DNA of 64,000 nt from a virus (lineage: Duplodnaviria > Caudoviricetes): the IMG/VR virus record IMGVR_UViG_2648501152_000001, positions 21,132 to 85,131 of that record; one strand, given 5' to 3'. Of the stretch, positions 36,074 through 41,282 are shown in pieces; positions within the stretch are counted from its first letter, which is position 1, and the number at the start of each line of letters is the position of its first letter. A program made the position numbers and the translations under genes. Below the pieces are notes generated by a model. That model was not told where the DNA came from. It did no database searches and saw only the letters and a list, made by a program, of their open reading frames with translations.

Positions 36074-37270
36074 ATGCCACTAACACCCAGCTTCGGGGAC
36101 AAGATAGCCGCGAAGATCGTCGCCCTGTATGCGGCAGGCGAGGAACAACTCTACCGGTTTCTCGCCAAGTCGTTGCAGGGGGAGCGGGGCACGGGTGCGA
36201 ATTGGGCTGCCCGCATGATCATCAAAGTCGGTCCGGTTCGGGTGGGTGTGCAACGCATCCTGGATCGGTTGCATGGTGAGTCGCGGGTGATGGTGACTGA
36301 GGCGATTCGGCAGGCGTGGGAGAACGGCAGGAATGCCGCCCTGGAGGATATTCCGGGTGAGCGTGTTCCGGTGTTCAACGTGGATGGTGCGTCGGCGCGG
36401 GCTGCGGAGGAGTTGAATCAGCGCCTGGTGGAGACTCGTCCGCGTGCCGCAGAATCCGCGTCGAACATCTACCGCCAGGTGATCGATGAAGTGACGCGGG
36501 ATGAGTCGATCACGTCGGAGGCGTCACGCAAGAGGTTGGTGCAGCGGGCGTTGGATCGGTTCGCGCGTGATGGGATCACGTCGTTCATCGATCAGCGTGG
36601 ACGCAACTACGACCTGGTCTCGTACACGGAGATGGCTGTGCGTGCCGCGGTGTCCGAAGGTGAGATCAACGCCTACATGCAGCAGTTGGTTGCGGCAGGA
36701 ATCGACCTCGTGGTGATCAGTGACGTGCCTCAGAGCTGTGCCCTTTGTGAACCCTTCGAGTCAAAGCTAGTTTCGATCACGGGCGCCACTCGCGCTGCAA
36801 TCTGGGTGGACCCTGAGACAGGGCGAACCCGTTCCGTTCCTGTGTTCTCCACGTTAGCGGAGGCCCGTGCCGCTGGACTGTGGCACCCTGGTTGCCGTCA
36901 CGTGGCGAAGGGTTGGACGCCGGATAGTCCGTTTCCGCCGCCGGCTGATCCGCCCGACCCCGAGGGATATAAGGCGACGCAGCGACTCCGGGCGTTGGAA
37001 CGGCGTGTGAGGCGTGAGAAGCGGGTGCTAGCGGCAGCGATGTCGCCGGAGGCGGAAACGGCGGCGCGGCGCAGGATTCGTGGTGTGCAAGCACAGATCC
37101 GTGACCATATTGCGCGTACGGGTGTGCAGCGTAGACGCGACCGCGAACAACTGCATCGGGGGTATGAGTCGACTCCGGATGCGCGTGCATTGAATGCCGA
37201 AAAGCGGACACAGCAACGGAAGACCGTGGATGAGTTGGTGGAGGAGATTCGCAGCGAGCGCGGACAGTAG
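36074..37270 (+). CDS. phage minor capsid protein
   Basis: YTEMAVR, C..C, GLWHPGCRH, QRLRALERRVR. Confidence 0.85.
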   Translation: MPLTPSFGDKIAAKIVALYAAGEEQLYRFLAKSLQGERGTGANWAARMIIKVGPVRVGVQRILDRLHGESRVMVTEAIRQAWENGRNAALEDIPGERVPVFNVDGASARAAEELNQRLVETRPRAAESASNIYRQVIDEVTRDESITSEASRKRLVQRALDRFARDGITSFIDQRGRNYDLVSYTEMAVRAAVSEGEINAYMQQLVAAGIDLVVISDVPQSCALCEPFESKLVSITGATRAAIWVDPETGRTRSVPVFSTLAEARAAGLWHPGCRHVAKGWTPDSPFPPPADPPDPEGYKATQRLRALERRVRREKRVLAAAMSPEAETAARRRIRGVQAQIRDHIARTGVQRRRDREQLHRGYESTPDARALNAEKRTQQRKTVDELVEEIRSERGQ

Positions 37271-37280
37271 GTGAACGCGA

Positions 37281-37314
37281 CGAAGCCCACGACCTGTGTG
37301 GATCGGGGGCTTCG
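37281..37314. terminator. hairpin between convergent genes
   Basis: CGAAGCCC...GGGCTTCG. Confidence 0.55.
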
Positions 37315-37371
37315 GTTCCTGGCGGGACACGATTGGGTTGCGCACGGTCGTTGGCCAGGAAAGTATTGGGG

Positions 37372-38148
37372 TTACTGCTCGTCGTAGAGCCGCTTCGATT
37401 CTACCCAAAGATCCTTCAGTATCGTCTTCGCCACCAGGCGCACAGCCATAGCGTGCTGGTGCCCGTCATTCCGCACCGAACCAACCTCCGCAGGCTTGCC
37501 CTTCTTCCCGCAGCGTACGCACTCCACCGCGTGAACAGAATCGGCATACTTGGCGCGGGCATCCCGATACACAGTCTCGTACGGGCTGGTCTTGAACTTC
37601 GGAACAGCCGACGCAATCACCCACGTGCGCTTCCGGGCATTCTCAGACCAGTTCGACTGCTGACCACGAGTACGGCGCGGAGCCGCACCGTTGCGCACAT
37701 CGAACCCGCAGTAAGCCCACAGTTCGCTCACCGTACGCGGACGCTCGTGCAGGTCGTTCCAGTACGGGTCGCCGATCGCCGCCAACAGGCGCGCAGACTG
37801 CTTCAACCCGAGACCAGAAGTGCTCGTCACGAACTTCCCCAGCGGGTGCATCTTCATGGCCTTCTCAAGGTTCTTCACCGCATCCTTCTCGGCCTGAACC
37901 ATCGCCTCAACCGTATCCGCCAACTTCACCACAACAGGATTGTCGTGGGTGAGCCCGAAACCGCGTTCCTCGCCATCCTTGTCGACCTCATCCAGTCCAC
38001 GGGTGAGGATGCGGATACGGTTCATGTTGGCGATTCGGACCGTTTCCAGGTCGTCTACCACGTCCGCGAGAGTGCCCAGCACCCCGTCGCGCAGCCAACC
38101 GCCAGTCTTGATCGAAGACAGGGTTACATTCGGTTCGGTCGTGGTCAC
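37372..38148 (-). CDS. TasA-like Nop-domain RNA-guided DNA-binding protein (IS110-related, no nuclease domain)
   Basis: Coiled coil (DLETVRIANMNR), HP...GLG...ARLLAAIGD, LWAYCG, APRR.RG...NW, H..A.R...K..LKDLW; lacks the IS110 N-terminal DEDD RuvC domain; adjacent to a dual-spacer array. Confidence 0.8.
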   Translation of the reverse strand: MTTTEPNVTLSSIKTGGWLRDGVLGTLADVVDDLETVRIANMNRIRILTRGLDEVDKDGEERGFGLTHDNPVVVKLADTVEAMVQAEKDAVKNLEKAMKMHPLGKFVTSTSGLGLKQSARLLAAIGDPYWNDLHERPRTVSELWAYCGFDVRNGAAPRRTRGQQSNWSENARKRTWVIASAVPKFKTSPYETVYRDARAKYADSVHAVECVRCGKKGKPAEVGSVRNDGHQHAMAVRLVAKTILKDLWVESKRLYDEQ

Positions 38149-38684
38149 TTCGGCTCCCTCAGGGTTGCGGCGACAGCTGCGGGCAGATCGGCGACGGTCT
38201 CGACGTTGTGCTTGAGCATGAGCGACTGCACCGCCGAGTAATAGTCAGCCCAGTGTGCGTTCTGTTCGATACGCGCCTGATATCCAGCGACCACGTGCGA
38301 GAGATCATCTGTGGTGCAGGAGCCGAACTTTTTGCGCTCGCCGGCGACGTAGATGGATGCTTGGAGGGCGCGTGCCCATGCGGATGCTGCGACGAGTCGT
38401 TTGGCGGAGCGTGCGGGGCGGCGGACTCCGCTGACGGTTTCCTGCTGGATGCTGGTGGGCGCGTTGTCGTCGGTGTCTCGGGTGGCGCGGATCGCTGACA
38501 GTCTGCTCTGGCCGACTTTGATGCGCACGTATTCTACGAGTGCTTGATGGTAGAACTCGTGGAGGAGACTGTCGGGGGTTTCGGTTGCGACGGCTGCCGC
38601 GATTTTGCGGGGGTCGACTTCGGTGGTGTTGTCGAGGTGCTGTCGCACGAATTGTGCGAGTGTGATGGTTTCCGTGGTGGTCAC
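38145..38684 (-). CDS. uncharacterised protein translationally coupled to the TasA-like gene
   Basis: GGAAGGA RBS, GTG start, GTGA overlap with the downstream gene; lies between array and TasA. Confidence 0.75.
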   Translation of the reverse strand: MTTTETITLAQFVRQHLDNTTEVDPRKIAAAVATETPDSLLHEFYHQALVEYVRIKVGQSRLSAIRATRDTDDNAPTSIQQETVSGVRRPARSAKRLVAASAWARALQASIYVAGERKKFGSCTTDDLSHVVAGYQARIEQNAHWADYYSAVQSLMLKHNVETVADLPAAVAATLREPK

Positions 38685-38705
38685 GGTTCATCCTTCCTGT
38701 TGGGT

Positions 38706-39272
38706 CCCGAAGCGTATGTGGTGTGGGTTTCTGGCTTCTCTTGGCTTCGGGAAGTTGAACCGGCAAGCGAGCATTGATTGGATCGCGTATAGACTTTGGC
38801 TTGCCGGAGTTTGGTTCCAGTCAGTCGAGGTGTGAATGGGTCACATCATGCACTTGGACTGACTGAAAGTTGGGTGCCACGCCAGCGGGCGGTGTTCGGG
38901 TATCGCAGTGCCGGTGGCTGGTGTGGCAAGTTGAATCCGCCGAACGGCAGTTTTTTGGGAACCGCATAGGAGATGGTTCGACGGAAGTTGAGTCCCCACA
39001 GCAGGACGTAATTGGGCATCGCTGCTTCTTTGGCTGTGGGTAAGTTGGGTCCGAAGACGGCGGGAGTTGCTTGGGTTCCGCGCGCGCGATGGCCGTCTTC
39101 GGAAGTTGAAACCCGCCGCAGAAACCGAATGGTGCTCGCGTCCTTGATGGCGGCGGGAAGATTGGTTCCGCAAGCGAGGTGTCCGTGGGTATCGCAGATG
39201 TCCTGGCTTGCGGAGGAATGAACACCGCACGCGATTTGCCATTGGGTTTCGAACCCTTCTTGGCGTGCGGTG
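38706..39272 (-). repeat. TIGR-type stem-loop guide RNA array, 10 units with two 9-nt spacers each
   Basis: Each unit is a unique 7-11 bp stem closing an exactly 32-nt core CCA-N9-(C/T/A)G-N3-(C/T/A)CC(A/G)-N9-(C/T)G; short linkers mostly ending CAACT(T). Confidence 0.9.
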
Positions 39273-39351
39273 AGATCGTGGGCAACTGTGTCGTGGGCGC
39301 TGTGTGTCATGTTCACTGCCGCTCCTTCCGTCGTGGTTGCCGTATAGCTAG

Positions 39352-39380
39352 ACAGTAACCAAGCATGCGGGTTCACGCAA
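39352..39380 (-). promoter_or_regulatory. promoter for the array/tas operon
   Basis: Minus strand TTGCGT-17-TACTGT. Confidence 0.65.
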
Positions 39381-39589
39381 CCCGTACAACGAAGAATCTT
39401 CGGATCAAGCCTCAGGCCTTTAATCGGCTTGACTCAAGGTGATAGACTTGATAACCGAGGCAGGGTTGTCCCCAAAACACCCCGCAATCCCCATGCCCCG
39501 AGTGGCATTCCCCGAACCCGCATTGCCCTGGTGGCGCGCGGGTTTTCTCGTTCCCGGCCCGGAGCCGGCTCCCGAGGAGACAACTTCAT

Positions 39590-40348
39590 ATGGCCGACGA
39601 AGCCACCCCGACCGAAACCACCGTCACAGAGACCGTGGCAGAGGACACCACCCCCGTTGCCGAAACCGCCGGCGGTGCTGATCAGACCGCAGAGAACACC
39701 GACAACACCACCCAGGTCGACACCCCCGAGGCAGAGACCGACACCCCCGCAGACGAACCCGAAGAGCGCACCTACACCAAGGCCGAACTCGACAAGGTCA
39801 AGCGGGAAGCACAGAAACTCCGCCAGCGCCTGAAGGACGAAACCGAGGCTGCCGCCAAGGCCGCTGCCGAGGCATCCGAAAAGGCCATTGCGGAGCGAAT
39901 CGGGAAGGCCCTCGGGCTCATCCCCGAAGAGAACGACCAGCCTGTCGACCCCGCCGTGCTCCTCGAGCAGGCCGCGGAGCGCGAAGCGCAGATCGCCAAC
40001 GAGCGTGACGCAGCCCGCGCCGAAATCGCCGCCTACCGGCTCGAACAGGCACTCACCAAGGCCGCCAACAATGTAGACGGCGACCTCGACATCCTCGTTC
40101 CCTACCTTCGCGGTACGGGAGCACTCGACAAGCTCGACCCCACTGCCGACGACTACAACGCCCAGGTGGCCGAAATCGTCACGCACGCAGTCGAAGCGAA
40201 CGCCAAGCTGGAGAAGGCGGCCCCGGTGGCTGCTCCTGCACGCAGCGGAGGCGACCTCAACGGCGGAACCGGCGCACCCAAGCGCGGACCCAAATCCGTC
40301 GAAGACTTCATCCGCGAAGCCCGCGAAAAGCGCGCCCGCGACCTCTGA
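39590..40348 (+). CDS. capsid scaffolding protein
   Basis: Acidic N-terminus, coiled coil, RSGGD near C-terminus; directly upstream of MCP. Confidence 0.85.
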   Translation: MADEATPTETTVTETVAEDTTPVAETAGGADQTAENTDNTTQVDTPEAETDTPADEPEERTYTKAELDKVKREAQKLRQRLKDETEAAAKAAAEASEKAIAERIGKALGLIPEENDQPVDPAVLLEQAAEREAQIANERDAARAEIAAYRLEQALTKAANNVDGDLDILVPYLRGTGALDKLDPTADDYNAQVAEIVTHAVEANAKLEKAAPVAAPARSGGDLNGGTGAPKRGPKSVEDFIREAREKRARDL

Positions 40349-40364
40349 CTCTTAGGAGACCATC

Positions 40365-41282
40365 GTGGTCAATACCTTTCTCACCCCTGACGTTATCGCC
40401 GCCAAGGCTCTCGCCACCCTCTACGAGAACCTCACCATGCTGCCCCTCGTCTACACCGACGTGTCCAGCGACTTCTCGCGCAGCAAGGTCGGCTCCGTTG
40501 TGAACGTGCGCAAGCCCGCCACCTTCACCGCGAACGAGTTCGATCGCGCCTCTGGCATCACCATCCAGAACGCCACCGAGTCCAGCGTCCCGGTCACCCT
40601 GGACAAGATCGCCGACGTGTCGTTCGCCGTCACCTCTGAGGATCTCACCCTGCACCTCGAGGACTTCGCGGCGCAGCTCCTCGCCCCCGCCACCGAAGCC
40701 ATCGCCCAGAAGATTGATCGGGACATCCTCGCCCTCAAGTCGAACGTCACCCAGGTTGCGGGCACCGGCACCGGCTTCGAGTGGACCAAGCCCGAGGCGC
40801 TGATCGAGGCGGATCGTCTCCTCAACATCAAGAACGTTCCCCCGTCGGAGCGCGCCGCTGTTGTTGGCCCCACCACGCGGGCGAACTGGCTGAACAGCGA
40901 CATCATCAAGTTCGCTGACAAGTCCGGCTCCACCGATGCGCTGCGTCGCGGTTCGATCGGTTCGGGCCTGTTCGGGTTCGATGCCTACATGACGCAGAAC
41001 GTTGCGCAGCCGGCTCAGTCCCCGGCGTCGGGTGAGCCGACCACCGAGGTTGGTGTTGCGTTCCACAAGACCGCGTTCGCGTTCGCGTCGGCTCCGCTGG
41101 CACTCCCGTCGGACACCGGCGAGTGGGCTGCCACCCAGTCCTACAAGGGCCTGAACCTGCGTGTCGTCAAGAGCTACGACATCTCGAAGAAGCAAGATGT
41201 GATTTCCGTGGATGTTCTCTACGGTGTCGATGTTCTGGATGCGAACCGCGCTGTTCTGCTGCGTGGCGCTCTCGCTGCCTGA
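40365..41282 (+). CDS. major capsid protein (P22 coat-like)
   Basis: NTFLTP..IA..AL, V.VRKP, AFHK.AFA, DVLYGV. Confidence 0.9.
   Translation: MVNTFLTPDVIAAKALATLYENLTMLPLVYTDVSSDFSRSKVGSVVNVRKPATFTANEFDRASGITIQNATESSVPVTLDKIADVSFAVTSEDLTLHLEDFAAQLLAPATEAIAQKIDRDILALKSNVTQVAGTGTGFEWTKPEALIEADRLLNIKNVPPSERAAVVGPTTRANWLNSDIIKFADKSGSTDALRRGSIGSGLFGFDAYMTQNVAQPAQSPASGEPTTEVGVAFHKTAFAFASAPLALPSDTGEWAATQSYKGLNLRVVKSYDISKKQDVISVDVLYGVDVLDANRAVLLRGALAA

Follow-up and report, generated by a model that had tools for sequence, protein, structure and literature searches.

Whether a kind of RNA-guided DNA binder that has been described as a single-protein system natively has a second protein is the question raised by one locus in a 64,000-nucleotide (nt) stretch of phage DNA (hereafter the window), which covers positions 21132-85131 of the IMG/VR provirus record IMGVR_UViG_2648501152_000001 (~85 kb). 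On the minus strand of the window, a 179-amino-acid (aa) open reading frame (ORF) at 38145..38684 lies between a stem-loop guide array and tasA, the gene for a nuclease-less Nop-domain TIGR-associated protein. According to the main texts of the literature, the first descriptions of TIGR-Tas systems, in 2025, presented them as RNA-guided DNA binders of a single protein, and compact tools are being developed from them; what the nuclease-less TasA branch does biologically and how stem-loop guides mature are left open there. The protein encoded by the ORF, here called the partner, is best explained overall as the dedicated second protein of stem-loop TIGR-TasA cassettes and, as we infer, a nonenzymatic accessory subunit, a reading to which we give a probability of about 0.6. 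A functional dedication of the partner to the TasA cassette is very likely, and its physical presence in the ribonucleoprotein (RNP) as a noncatalytic subunit falls a little short of an even chance. The cassettes are carried by phages and prophages, mainly of Actinomycetota; they hold guide array, partner, and tasA on one strand and move as a unit.

A real gene between a stem-loop array and tasA

The 179-aa ORF is a real gene. It runs from a GTG start to a TGA stop, and the N termini of its relatives align with that GTG in the family alignment. Its G+C content by codon position (0.65/0.478/0.733) follows that of neighboring real genes (tasA, 0.633/0.436/0.749; portal, 0.653/0.474/0.735), whereas the ORFs that overlap it deviate (a 153-aa minus-strand ORF, 0.708/0.617/0.506; a 96-aa plus-strand ORF, 0.742/0.526/0.639). 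A Shine-Dalgarno-like AGGAAGGA (38691..38698, minus strand), as read from the sequence, lies 6 nt 5' of the partner GTG and directly after the last array unit. A second one, GAGGGAG (38154..38160, minus strand), identified in the same way, lies within the partner 3' end, 5 nt 5' of the tasA GTG. The partner stop TGA (38145-38147) overlaps the tasA start GTG (38146-38148) as GTGA, so that the order on the minus strand, 5' to 3', is array (~39280-38700), partner (38684-38145), and tasA (38148-37372). The ORF list and the array reading both agree with the placement of the gene in the preliminary description of the locus, whose three motifs, RRPARSAKR, KKFGSCTTDDL, and VETVADLP, are all present in the translation.

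The gene that follows (37372..38148, minus strand; 258 aa) encodes, judging from its sequence matches, TasA as defined by Faure et al. (PMC12045711, section 4). Its product matches NCBIfam NF052498 (TIGR_Tas_endo) with 220.9 bits against a cut-off of 100 over residues 24-251, PHROG 4285 with an E value of 1e-98, and, in the PDB, 9mty_A (E 6.4e-15, among TasR/TasH matches) and TasH 21kl_A (E 1.6e-9). Only 23 residues lie outside the NF052498 match, which leaves no room for an HNH or RuvC domain, and the neighbor had rightly been called a Tas-like protein without nuclease. As a separate observation, all 34 TasA relatives of alignment A3 share residues H206, C210, C213, and H230 of the window's TasA, which look like a zinc-ribbon-type site.

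The array (~38700..39280, minus strand) has about 10 units, 8 parsed by script and 2 more by eye, at a spacing of 55-61 nt. In each unit, a 6-12-base-pair (bp) stem encloses 30 nt of inner sequence, and the linker after the stem usually carries CAACTT; the inner sequence starts with CA and continues with a variable segment, a conserved loop ending in CCCA, and a further variable segment. The stems are variable palindromes in place of edge repeats, which makes the array one of the stem-loop type as Xu et al. describe it (bioRxiv 10.64898/2026.09.09.750476, section 11). The locus thus contains what distinguishes TIGR-Tas systems, a Nop-domain Tas protein and an adjoining tandem array of dual-spacer units. 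With the two 9-nt spacers arranged in four orders, set -1 to +2 nt apart, and allowed at most 2 mismatches, no site outside the array was found in the 85-kb provirus; the spacer borders are guessed, which makes this a weak test of self-targeting.

One further ORF of 176 aa (38846-39376, minus strand) reads in frame through the whole array and is preceded by GGAAGGAG, with GTG/ATG at ~39310-39316. Its G+C content is flat across codon positions (0.599/0.554/0.616), so it probably reflects no gene but the ~57-nt period of the units; the first array unit may be preceded by a short leader peptide.

The partner accompanies tasA in nearly all related loci

We built hidden Markov models (HMMs) from 150 partner-family sequences (alignment A1; its first row, P0001, shares 99% identity with the 179-aa protein) and from the 34 TasA relatives of alignment A3, and ran them on six-frame ORFs of every fetched locus. 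Among loci collected through TasA, the partner was present in 23/23 from species-representative genomes and in 72/74 from IMG/VR. One of the partner-lacking loci (L034) has only 7 nt upstream of tasA. Partner and tasA are on the same strand and flank each other in 95 of the 96 informative loci, with the order reversed in L021, where the partner is directly downstream of tasA. The partner is directly upstream of tasA in all six loci from GenBank phages, namely, Chanagan and BigMau (Fromanvirus), Omega (Omegavirus), Spooky and BENtherdunthat (Gordonia phages), and prophiFSAT01-1. These span at least four unrelated groups (Fromanvirus, Omegavirus, Gordonia Langleyhallvirinae, and a Mycobacteroides prophage), and the surroundings of the cassette vary: in Fromanvirus its neighbor is the immunity repressor, in the Gordonia phages it follows Cro and the antirepressor, and in prophiFSAT01-1 it follows a primase.

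Both genes are found in 101 loci, 74 of which are nonredundant (partners less than 60% identical to each other). All-versus-all clustering of the ORFs in the nonredundant set recovered TasA in 74 loci, the partner in 70 (by BLAST), and the next family in only 7, which makes the partner the sole conserved neighbor of tasA; four further clusters are ORFs that overlap tasA in other frames or on the other strand. The two genes also share genomes. Each of five whole genomes picked via TasA has one partner copy, located at the tas locus. We also sampled 401 genomes spread evenly over the class of a Streptomyces genome (G001, reached through locus L009). Strong partner matches occur in G001, G304, and G337, and exactly these three have TIGR_Tas_endo above its cut-off, with the partner upstream of TasA on the same strand at a distance of ~300-500 nt; weak partner copies could be missed here, since 8 candidates were scored per genome. 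The other 127 matching genomes have subthreshold TIGR_Tas_endo only, consistent with the model's cross-match to IS110 transposases, and G079 has a marginal partner match (E 5.8e-4) to the N-terminal part only, on a 1.9-kb contig.

The preliminary description took the gene for a partner of the Tas protein and named as a contrary sign homologues that occur mostly without tas genes or arrays; the distribution over loci and genomes given above bears out a partner rather than a passenger. Both a chance association, with an unrelated phage gene hitch-hiking beside tasA, and an origin as a split-off or decayed N-terminal piece of TasA are highly improbable and already largely refuted, as the pairing is kept in 74 nonredundant lineages with unrelated flanks. 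Pairwise identities of partner and TasA correlate (r 0.36, a value reached in 0/999 permutations), and the partner diverges about twice as fast, with a mean identity of 26% versus 51% for TasA.

Starting from the partner instead, a degenerate DNA pattern for its motif K-x-LG-x-CT-x-x-DL retrieved 21 stretches from IMG/VR: 5 strong partners (E ≤1e-30), 5 weak ones (E 1.8e-6 to 2.6e-4), and 11 chance matches. Four of the five strong loci have TasA, on contigs already in the TasA-first set. Two weak partner-like ORFs, in L160 and L161, precede a Tas protein; in L161 (1484-3327), the ORF has 190 aa (E 2.6e-4), and the 368-aa protein after it matches NF052498 with 103.2 bits in its C-terminal half only. 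On these matches, L161 (and L160) appears to be a very distant version of the partner-TasA pair. Three other look-alikes (L163:6311-6775, L156:1102-1689, and L149:2938-3573) match only W-x-V-x-G-K-x-LG-x-CT-x-x-DL and the helix that follows it in the partner; because these weak matches are confined to the C-terminal domain, a distant form of that domain may exist outside tas loci. Whole-record searches found no Tas protein in L159 (the fifth strong locus), L149 (15% complete), L163, or L156 (both complete). In two outgroups, Microcystis phage Mvi-JY20 (Tas-like) and Salicola phage CGphi29 (TasH), no partner was found within 4 kb at E ≤10 without filtering.

Gene order and spacing

In the 101 loci, the median gap from the partner stop to the point where the TasA core is projected to begin is 287 nt. 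The genes overlap or abut in 5 loci, and the gap is 0-59 nt in 1, 60-149 nt in 6, 150-299 nt in 46, 300-499 nt in 33, and at least 500 nt in 8; it is negative by more than 200 nt in two, L021, with its downstream partner, and L029, where the tblastn match starts at TasA residue 94. In BigMau, five stem-loop units of the same design as those of the window lie between partner and tasA. The order array-partner-tasA with a GTGA overlap, as in the window, is a minority layout, and partner-array-tasA is the common one. The preliminary description had deduced coupled expression from the GTGA overlap; the overlap itself is in the sequence, but with only 5/101 loci overlapping or abutting, translational coupling is not a conserved trait of the pair.

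The common layout also accounts for many annotations of "TasA" proteins of 420-446 aa, whose extensions probably run over array DNA. Their length, close to 179 plus 258 aa, would suit a partner split off from TasA. However, the N-terminal extensions of three long relatives are unlike the partner (best E 2.9-8.9), and in none of the 101 loci do both HMMs match in one frame; a fusion or split-gene origin was rejected on these two grounds.

The layout bears more directly on the main rival, that the partner is a guide-RNA biogenesis factor that folds, cuts, or loads stem-loop tigRNAs (for example, at the CUU linker) outside the DNA-bound complex. Judging from gene order, the partner is apparently always cotranscribed with the array, which lies just before it in the window and between it and tasA in BigMau; the 287-nt median gap is in keeping with this, and CTT is present in the post-stem linker of 6 of the 8 parsed units in the window. 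In the text of a preprint by Xu et al. (bioRxiv 10.64898/2026.09.09.750476), tigRNA processing maps to a CUU motif (section 11), stem-loop Tas proteins are without a self-processing loop, and flanking sequence sharpens processing, which leaves room for a helper. Against such a role, the partner has no nuclease-like fold or motif (the best Foldseek match in the PDB has an E value of 3.6), no Pfam RNase family is matched by any of 150 family members, and the sole histidine among the listed conserved positions is kept in only 55% (83/150). Stem-loop tigRNAs of other systems, moreover, are processed in Escherichia coli, as described in the published texts, from constructs that may or may not have carried a partner gene. 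We consider a role in guide maturation unlikely.

Of 94 GenBank records of Fromanvirus phages that match the BigMau cassette (L003:1750-3256) at 90% identity or more, 79 contain at least 80% of it at a single location. The remaining 15 may have different arrays or partial cassettes, in which case they would be a natural series for array turnover.

The partner is predicted to be mostly helical and matches no known fold

The only family match of the partner is PHROG 4604, of unassigned function (E 2e-29), in which residues 7-171 align with profile positions 1-158 of 159; this near end-to-end likeness brings neither a function nor a link to TIGR-Tas, as the PHROG itself carries none. As the preliminary description had noted, no domain is recognizable: Pfam gave no match at E ≤1, NCBIfam one chance match (E 0.12), and PADLOC none, and the PDB gave no match by sequence and at best Rop (E 0.094) by family profile. 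An exhaustive phmmer search of 1.84 billion representatives returned 270 relatives at E ≤1e-3, 15 of them at E ≤1e-10 and 2 at E ≤1e-30; the best 150 of the 270 are all 146-217 aa long, and the HMM made from them scores the window's partner at 8e-55. A word-index search returned only the partner protein itself, and the ESM Atlas holds only unnamed viral clusters at 0.86. Locus searches with single partner proteins found none (P0001 among viral and genome contigs, P0015 and P0018 among viral contigs, and P0009 in metagenomes).

The AlphaFold2 model (alignment A1, with P0001 as the first row) has a mean predicted local distance difference test score of 92.3 and a predicted template modeling (TM) score of 0.71. 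It confidently predicts two domains, largely of helices, with a short basic linker between them: an N-terminal part with helices 9-19, 25-35, and 38-69, a linker of lower confidence, and a C-terminal part with helix 94-107, a β-hairpin (110-119), a long helix (125-158), and a short helix (169-172). Model and alignment agree with the helical N terminus, basic linker, and conserved C terminus that had been proposed from the sequence. With Foldseek, none of 350,542 PDB chains matched at E ≤0.001, the TM score (normalized by query length) not exceeding 0.28, and in BFVD there were only 4 matches at E ≤0.001, all uncharacterized phage proteins (two of them from Mycobacterium phages Omega and Rich).

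The best-kept positions, L9, P25, A29, L49, R61, S93, W103, K118, C123, D127, L167, and P168, have the same residue in 118-137 of the 150 sequences (S93, 123; K118, 126; C123, 136; D127, 128; L167, 137; P168, 127). The resulting signature is a helical N-terminal domain, a variable basic linker with S-x-K, and a C-terminal W, K-x-LG-x-CT-x-x-DL, and TV-DLP, the C-terminal half (WK-LG-CT-DL ... TV-DLP) being the better conserved part. C123, conserved at 91%, is the only cysteine of the partner. The N-terminal domain is slightly acidic and the linker has a net charge of +2. Neither an enzyme motif nor a known fold was found in the sequence, profile, and Foldseek searches above, and nothing in conservation or charge points to an enzyme.

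A third possibility, behind a subunit and a maturation factor and less likely than the latter, is that the partner acts beside TasA, and not on it, as a dimer that binds DNA and regulates; it would either autoregulate the cassette or serve as a DNA clamp like the C-terminal domain of ParB. The partner is the first gene of the operon, its modeled three-helix N-terminal domain and basic linker could suit such a role, its C-terminal look-alikes occur in Tas-free phages, and a DNA-binding partner of TasA, TasParB, is described in the main text of PMC12045711. Residues 88-134 (helix, hairpin, helix) were also placed in the same register on the ParB C-terminal dimerization domain by two hhalign runs, with no statistical support. 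The alignment is in fact at control level: A1 against actinobacterial ParB gave a probability of 5.9% with 6 sequences and of 0.5%, with a score of 14.0, with 61 C-terminal domains, while reversed columns scored 14.6 and 20 column shuffles scored 8.4-12.1. No helix-turn-helix or ParB Pfam family is found in the 150 members, Foldseek returned no such structure, and an exchangeable regulator is not expected beside tasA in 95/96 loci whose flanks are otherwise unrelated.

Membership in the TasParB family itself is highly improbable. The arrangement is alike, in that TasParB is in an operon with tasA and the arrays lie upstream, downstream, or between (PMC12045711, section 44); according to the same text, however, what defined the family was its HHpred matches to ParB domains, CTPases among them, and it goes with dual-repeat arrays with 10-nt repeats. 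At E ≤0.1, no ParB family of Pfam, ParB_N included, is matched by any of the 150 partner-family members, and ParB is not among the matches of the partner profile search of the PDB or of Foldseek. With hhalign at control level and an array of the stem-loop type, ParB or TasParB membership was rejected, TasParB being compared by its description only.

Setting of the cassette in the window

The array and the two genes occupy a 2.3-kb stretch that runs on the strand opposite to its neighbors. The whole cassette (37271-39589) is antisense to the head-gene operon, between a minor capsid protein 2/MuF-like gene (36074-37270, plus strand; PF06152, E 4.4e-35) and a 252-aa ORF (39590-40348, plus strand) that is a scaffold gene by position and has only chance matches in Pfam; a 305-aa ORF (40365-41282, plus strand) after it is likewise named only by position, as the major capsid gene. 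In Gordonia phage GMA1 (L172), whose MuF-like protein is 37% identical, the next head genes follow 288 bp after MuF with no insert, so that on this single comparator the stretch can be read as an inserted cassette. The cassette of Mycobacterium phage Omega (L004) is likewise antisense among head-to-tail genes. No consensus promoter or terminator was found in 37200-39620. A search of sequencing runs returned no RNA run with the window stretch, and the best DNA runs share at most 0.27 of the sampled words.

Discussion

The locus is of a known kind, stem-loop TIGR-TasA, with a conserved second protein of no known fold that the main texts on these systems do not describe. PlTasA, BlTasA, and MbTasA (PMC12045711; bioRxiv 10.64898/2026.09.09.750476; bioRxiv 10.64898/2026.08.11.744272) likewise combine a nuclease-less Nop-domain Tas protein with stem-loop units that have two short variable segments and CUU-bearing linkers, and they are phage borne; they are described there as single-protein systems, whereas the window and the related loci (95/96) carry a second conserved gene. 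A related published arrangement is the TasParB-TasA operon (PMC12045711, main text), which shares an accessory gene in an operon with tasA and an array before, after, or between the two; it differs in the ParB homology of TasParB and in its dual-repeat arrays (10-nt edge and loop repeats), neither of which was found with the partner family. The configuration had been thought likely to be undescribed, and we found no account of the partner family in the main texts on TIGR-Tas and Tas accessory proteins, the supplements lying outside this scope. The text of the Xu et al. preprint contains none of the terms "accessory," "neighbor," "associated gene," and "co-occur," and in the main text of Faure et al. 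(2025, PMC12045711) TasA is without clear protein associations apart from TasParB. Neighbors were clustered there at 50% identity, which would split the partner family, as its members share ~26% identity.

We propose that the partner may join the TasA-tigRNA complex as a nonenzymatic accessory subunit. There it would stabilize the assembly or its DNA-bound state, or connect the bound complex to a downstream target, and its fast-evolving N-terminal half may carry lineage-specific contacts. Small partners are known from other guide-RNA complexes: Nop5 has L7Ae/Snu13 beside it in box C/D RNPs, and class 1 CRISPR effectors include a helical small subunit, Cas11. The partner might act roughly as such small helical subunits do, by an analogy limited to a possible mode in which a small protein is encoded with the main guide-RNA binder. 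No sequence or fold similarity to any PDB chain, L7Ae, fibrillarin, and Cas11-type proteins included, was found, and we claim no membership in these families.

Several observations weigh against the partner being such a subunit. A PlTasA dimer with tigRNA and DNA has been solved by cryo-electron microscopy without a partner, and MbTasA represses a reporter in E. coli without one, according to the published texts. The published TasA proteins thus bind and repress DNA alone, and TasA does not strictly need the partner for output; the effector role that the preliminary description suggested for this protein, on the ground that the Tas-like protein has no nuclease, is at most a candidate one. The absence of TasA-partner fusions (0/101 loci) means no Rosetta-stone support. 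Locus L089, with TasA and 4.7 kb upstream of it but no partner, is a real exception, and the strong partner of L159 (E 1.8e-31) is an orphan, in a 29.9-kb record that is 39% complete. Two of the C-terminal look-alikes (E 1.8e-6 and 3.8e-5; picked by the motif pattern) are in complete phage records free of Tas. The covariation of partner and TasA is modest, and the family, with a median isoelectric point of 6.3, is near neutral and hence no obvious nucleic acid binder. The fast evolution of the partner also fits an arms-race, conflict-driven, or regulatory protein; a fast N-terminal half beside a kept C-terminal one fits equally a conserved docking domain with a lineage-specific domain, or conflict-driven change.

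Two of these loci have features of their own. At positions 4050-4560 of L089, upstream of tasA, are three tRNA-like 3' halves (a T-arm and an acceptor-like GGTTCGACTCC...) with GGC-rich repeats between them; stem-loop units come next. In L159 (7232-9012), ~1.2 kb upstream of the orphan partner is without an ORF of coding-pattern G+C, and this region could be an array without TasA.

A more far-reaching view, which we advance tentatively and think more probably wrong than right, is that actinophage TIGR-TasA is natively a two-protein RNA-guided machine, in which the partner, a small subunit of new fold, attaches to the TasA dimer and cannot be dispensed with in the native host. The partner would turn guide-directed binding into an outcome, such as durable silencing of a rival phage or a host gene; alternatively, it would assemble the stem-loop guide RNP. 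If this were true, the published single-protein reconstitutions would miss a component, and the "~450-nt intergenic region" between the PlTasA subarrays (PMC12045711, section 9) may be a partner gene. In length, that region is comparable to the genes of the partner family (146-217 aa).

For the accessory-subunit reading, the meaning is that TIGR-TasA systems of this kind probably have a second protein part. Among the genes of related phage cassettes, the partner is the only one that stays with TasA nearly throughout, which makes it the clear candidate for a missing component and the one to test. It could account for the step from DNA binding to a phenotype or for the making of guides, and it could improve reconstituted systems. 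The whole cassette is carried by cluster A mycobacteriophages of Mycobacterium smegmatis (the 79 GenBank records with at least 80% of it), so that the contribution of the partner is testable in a standard phage-host pair.

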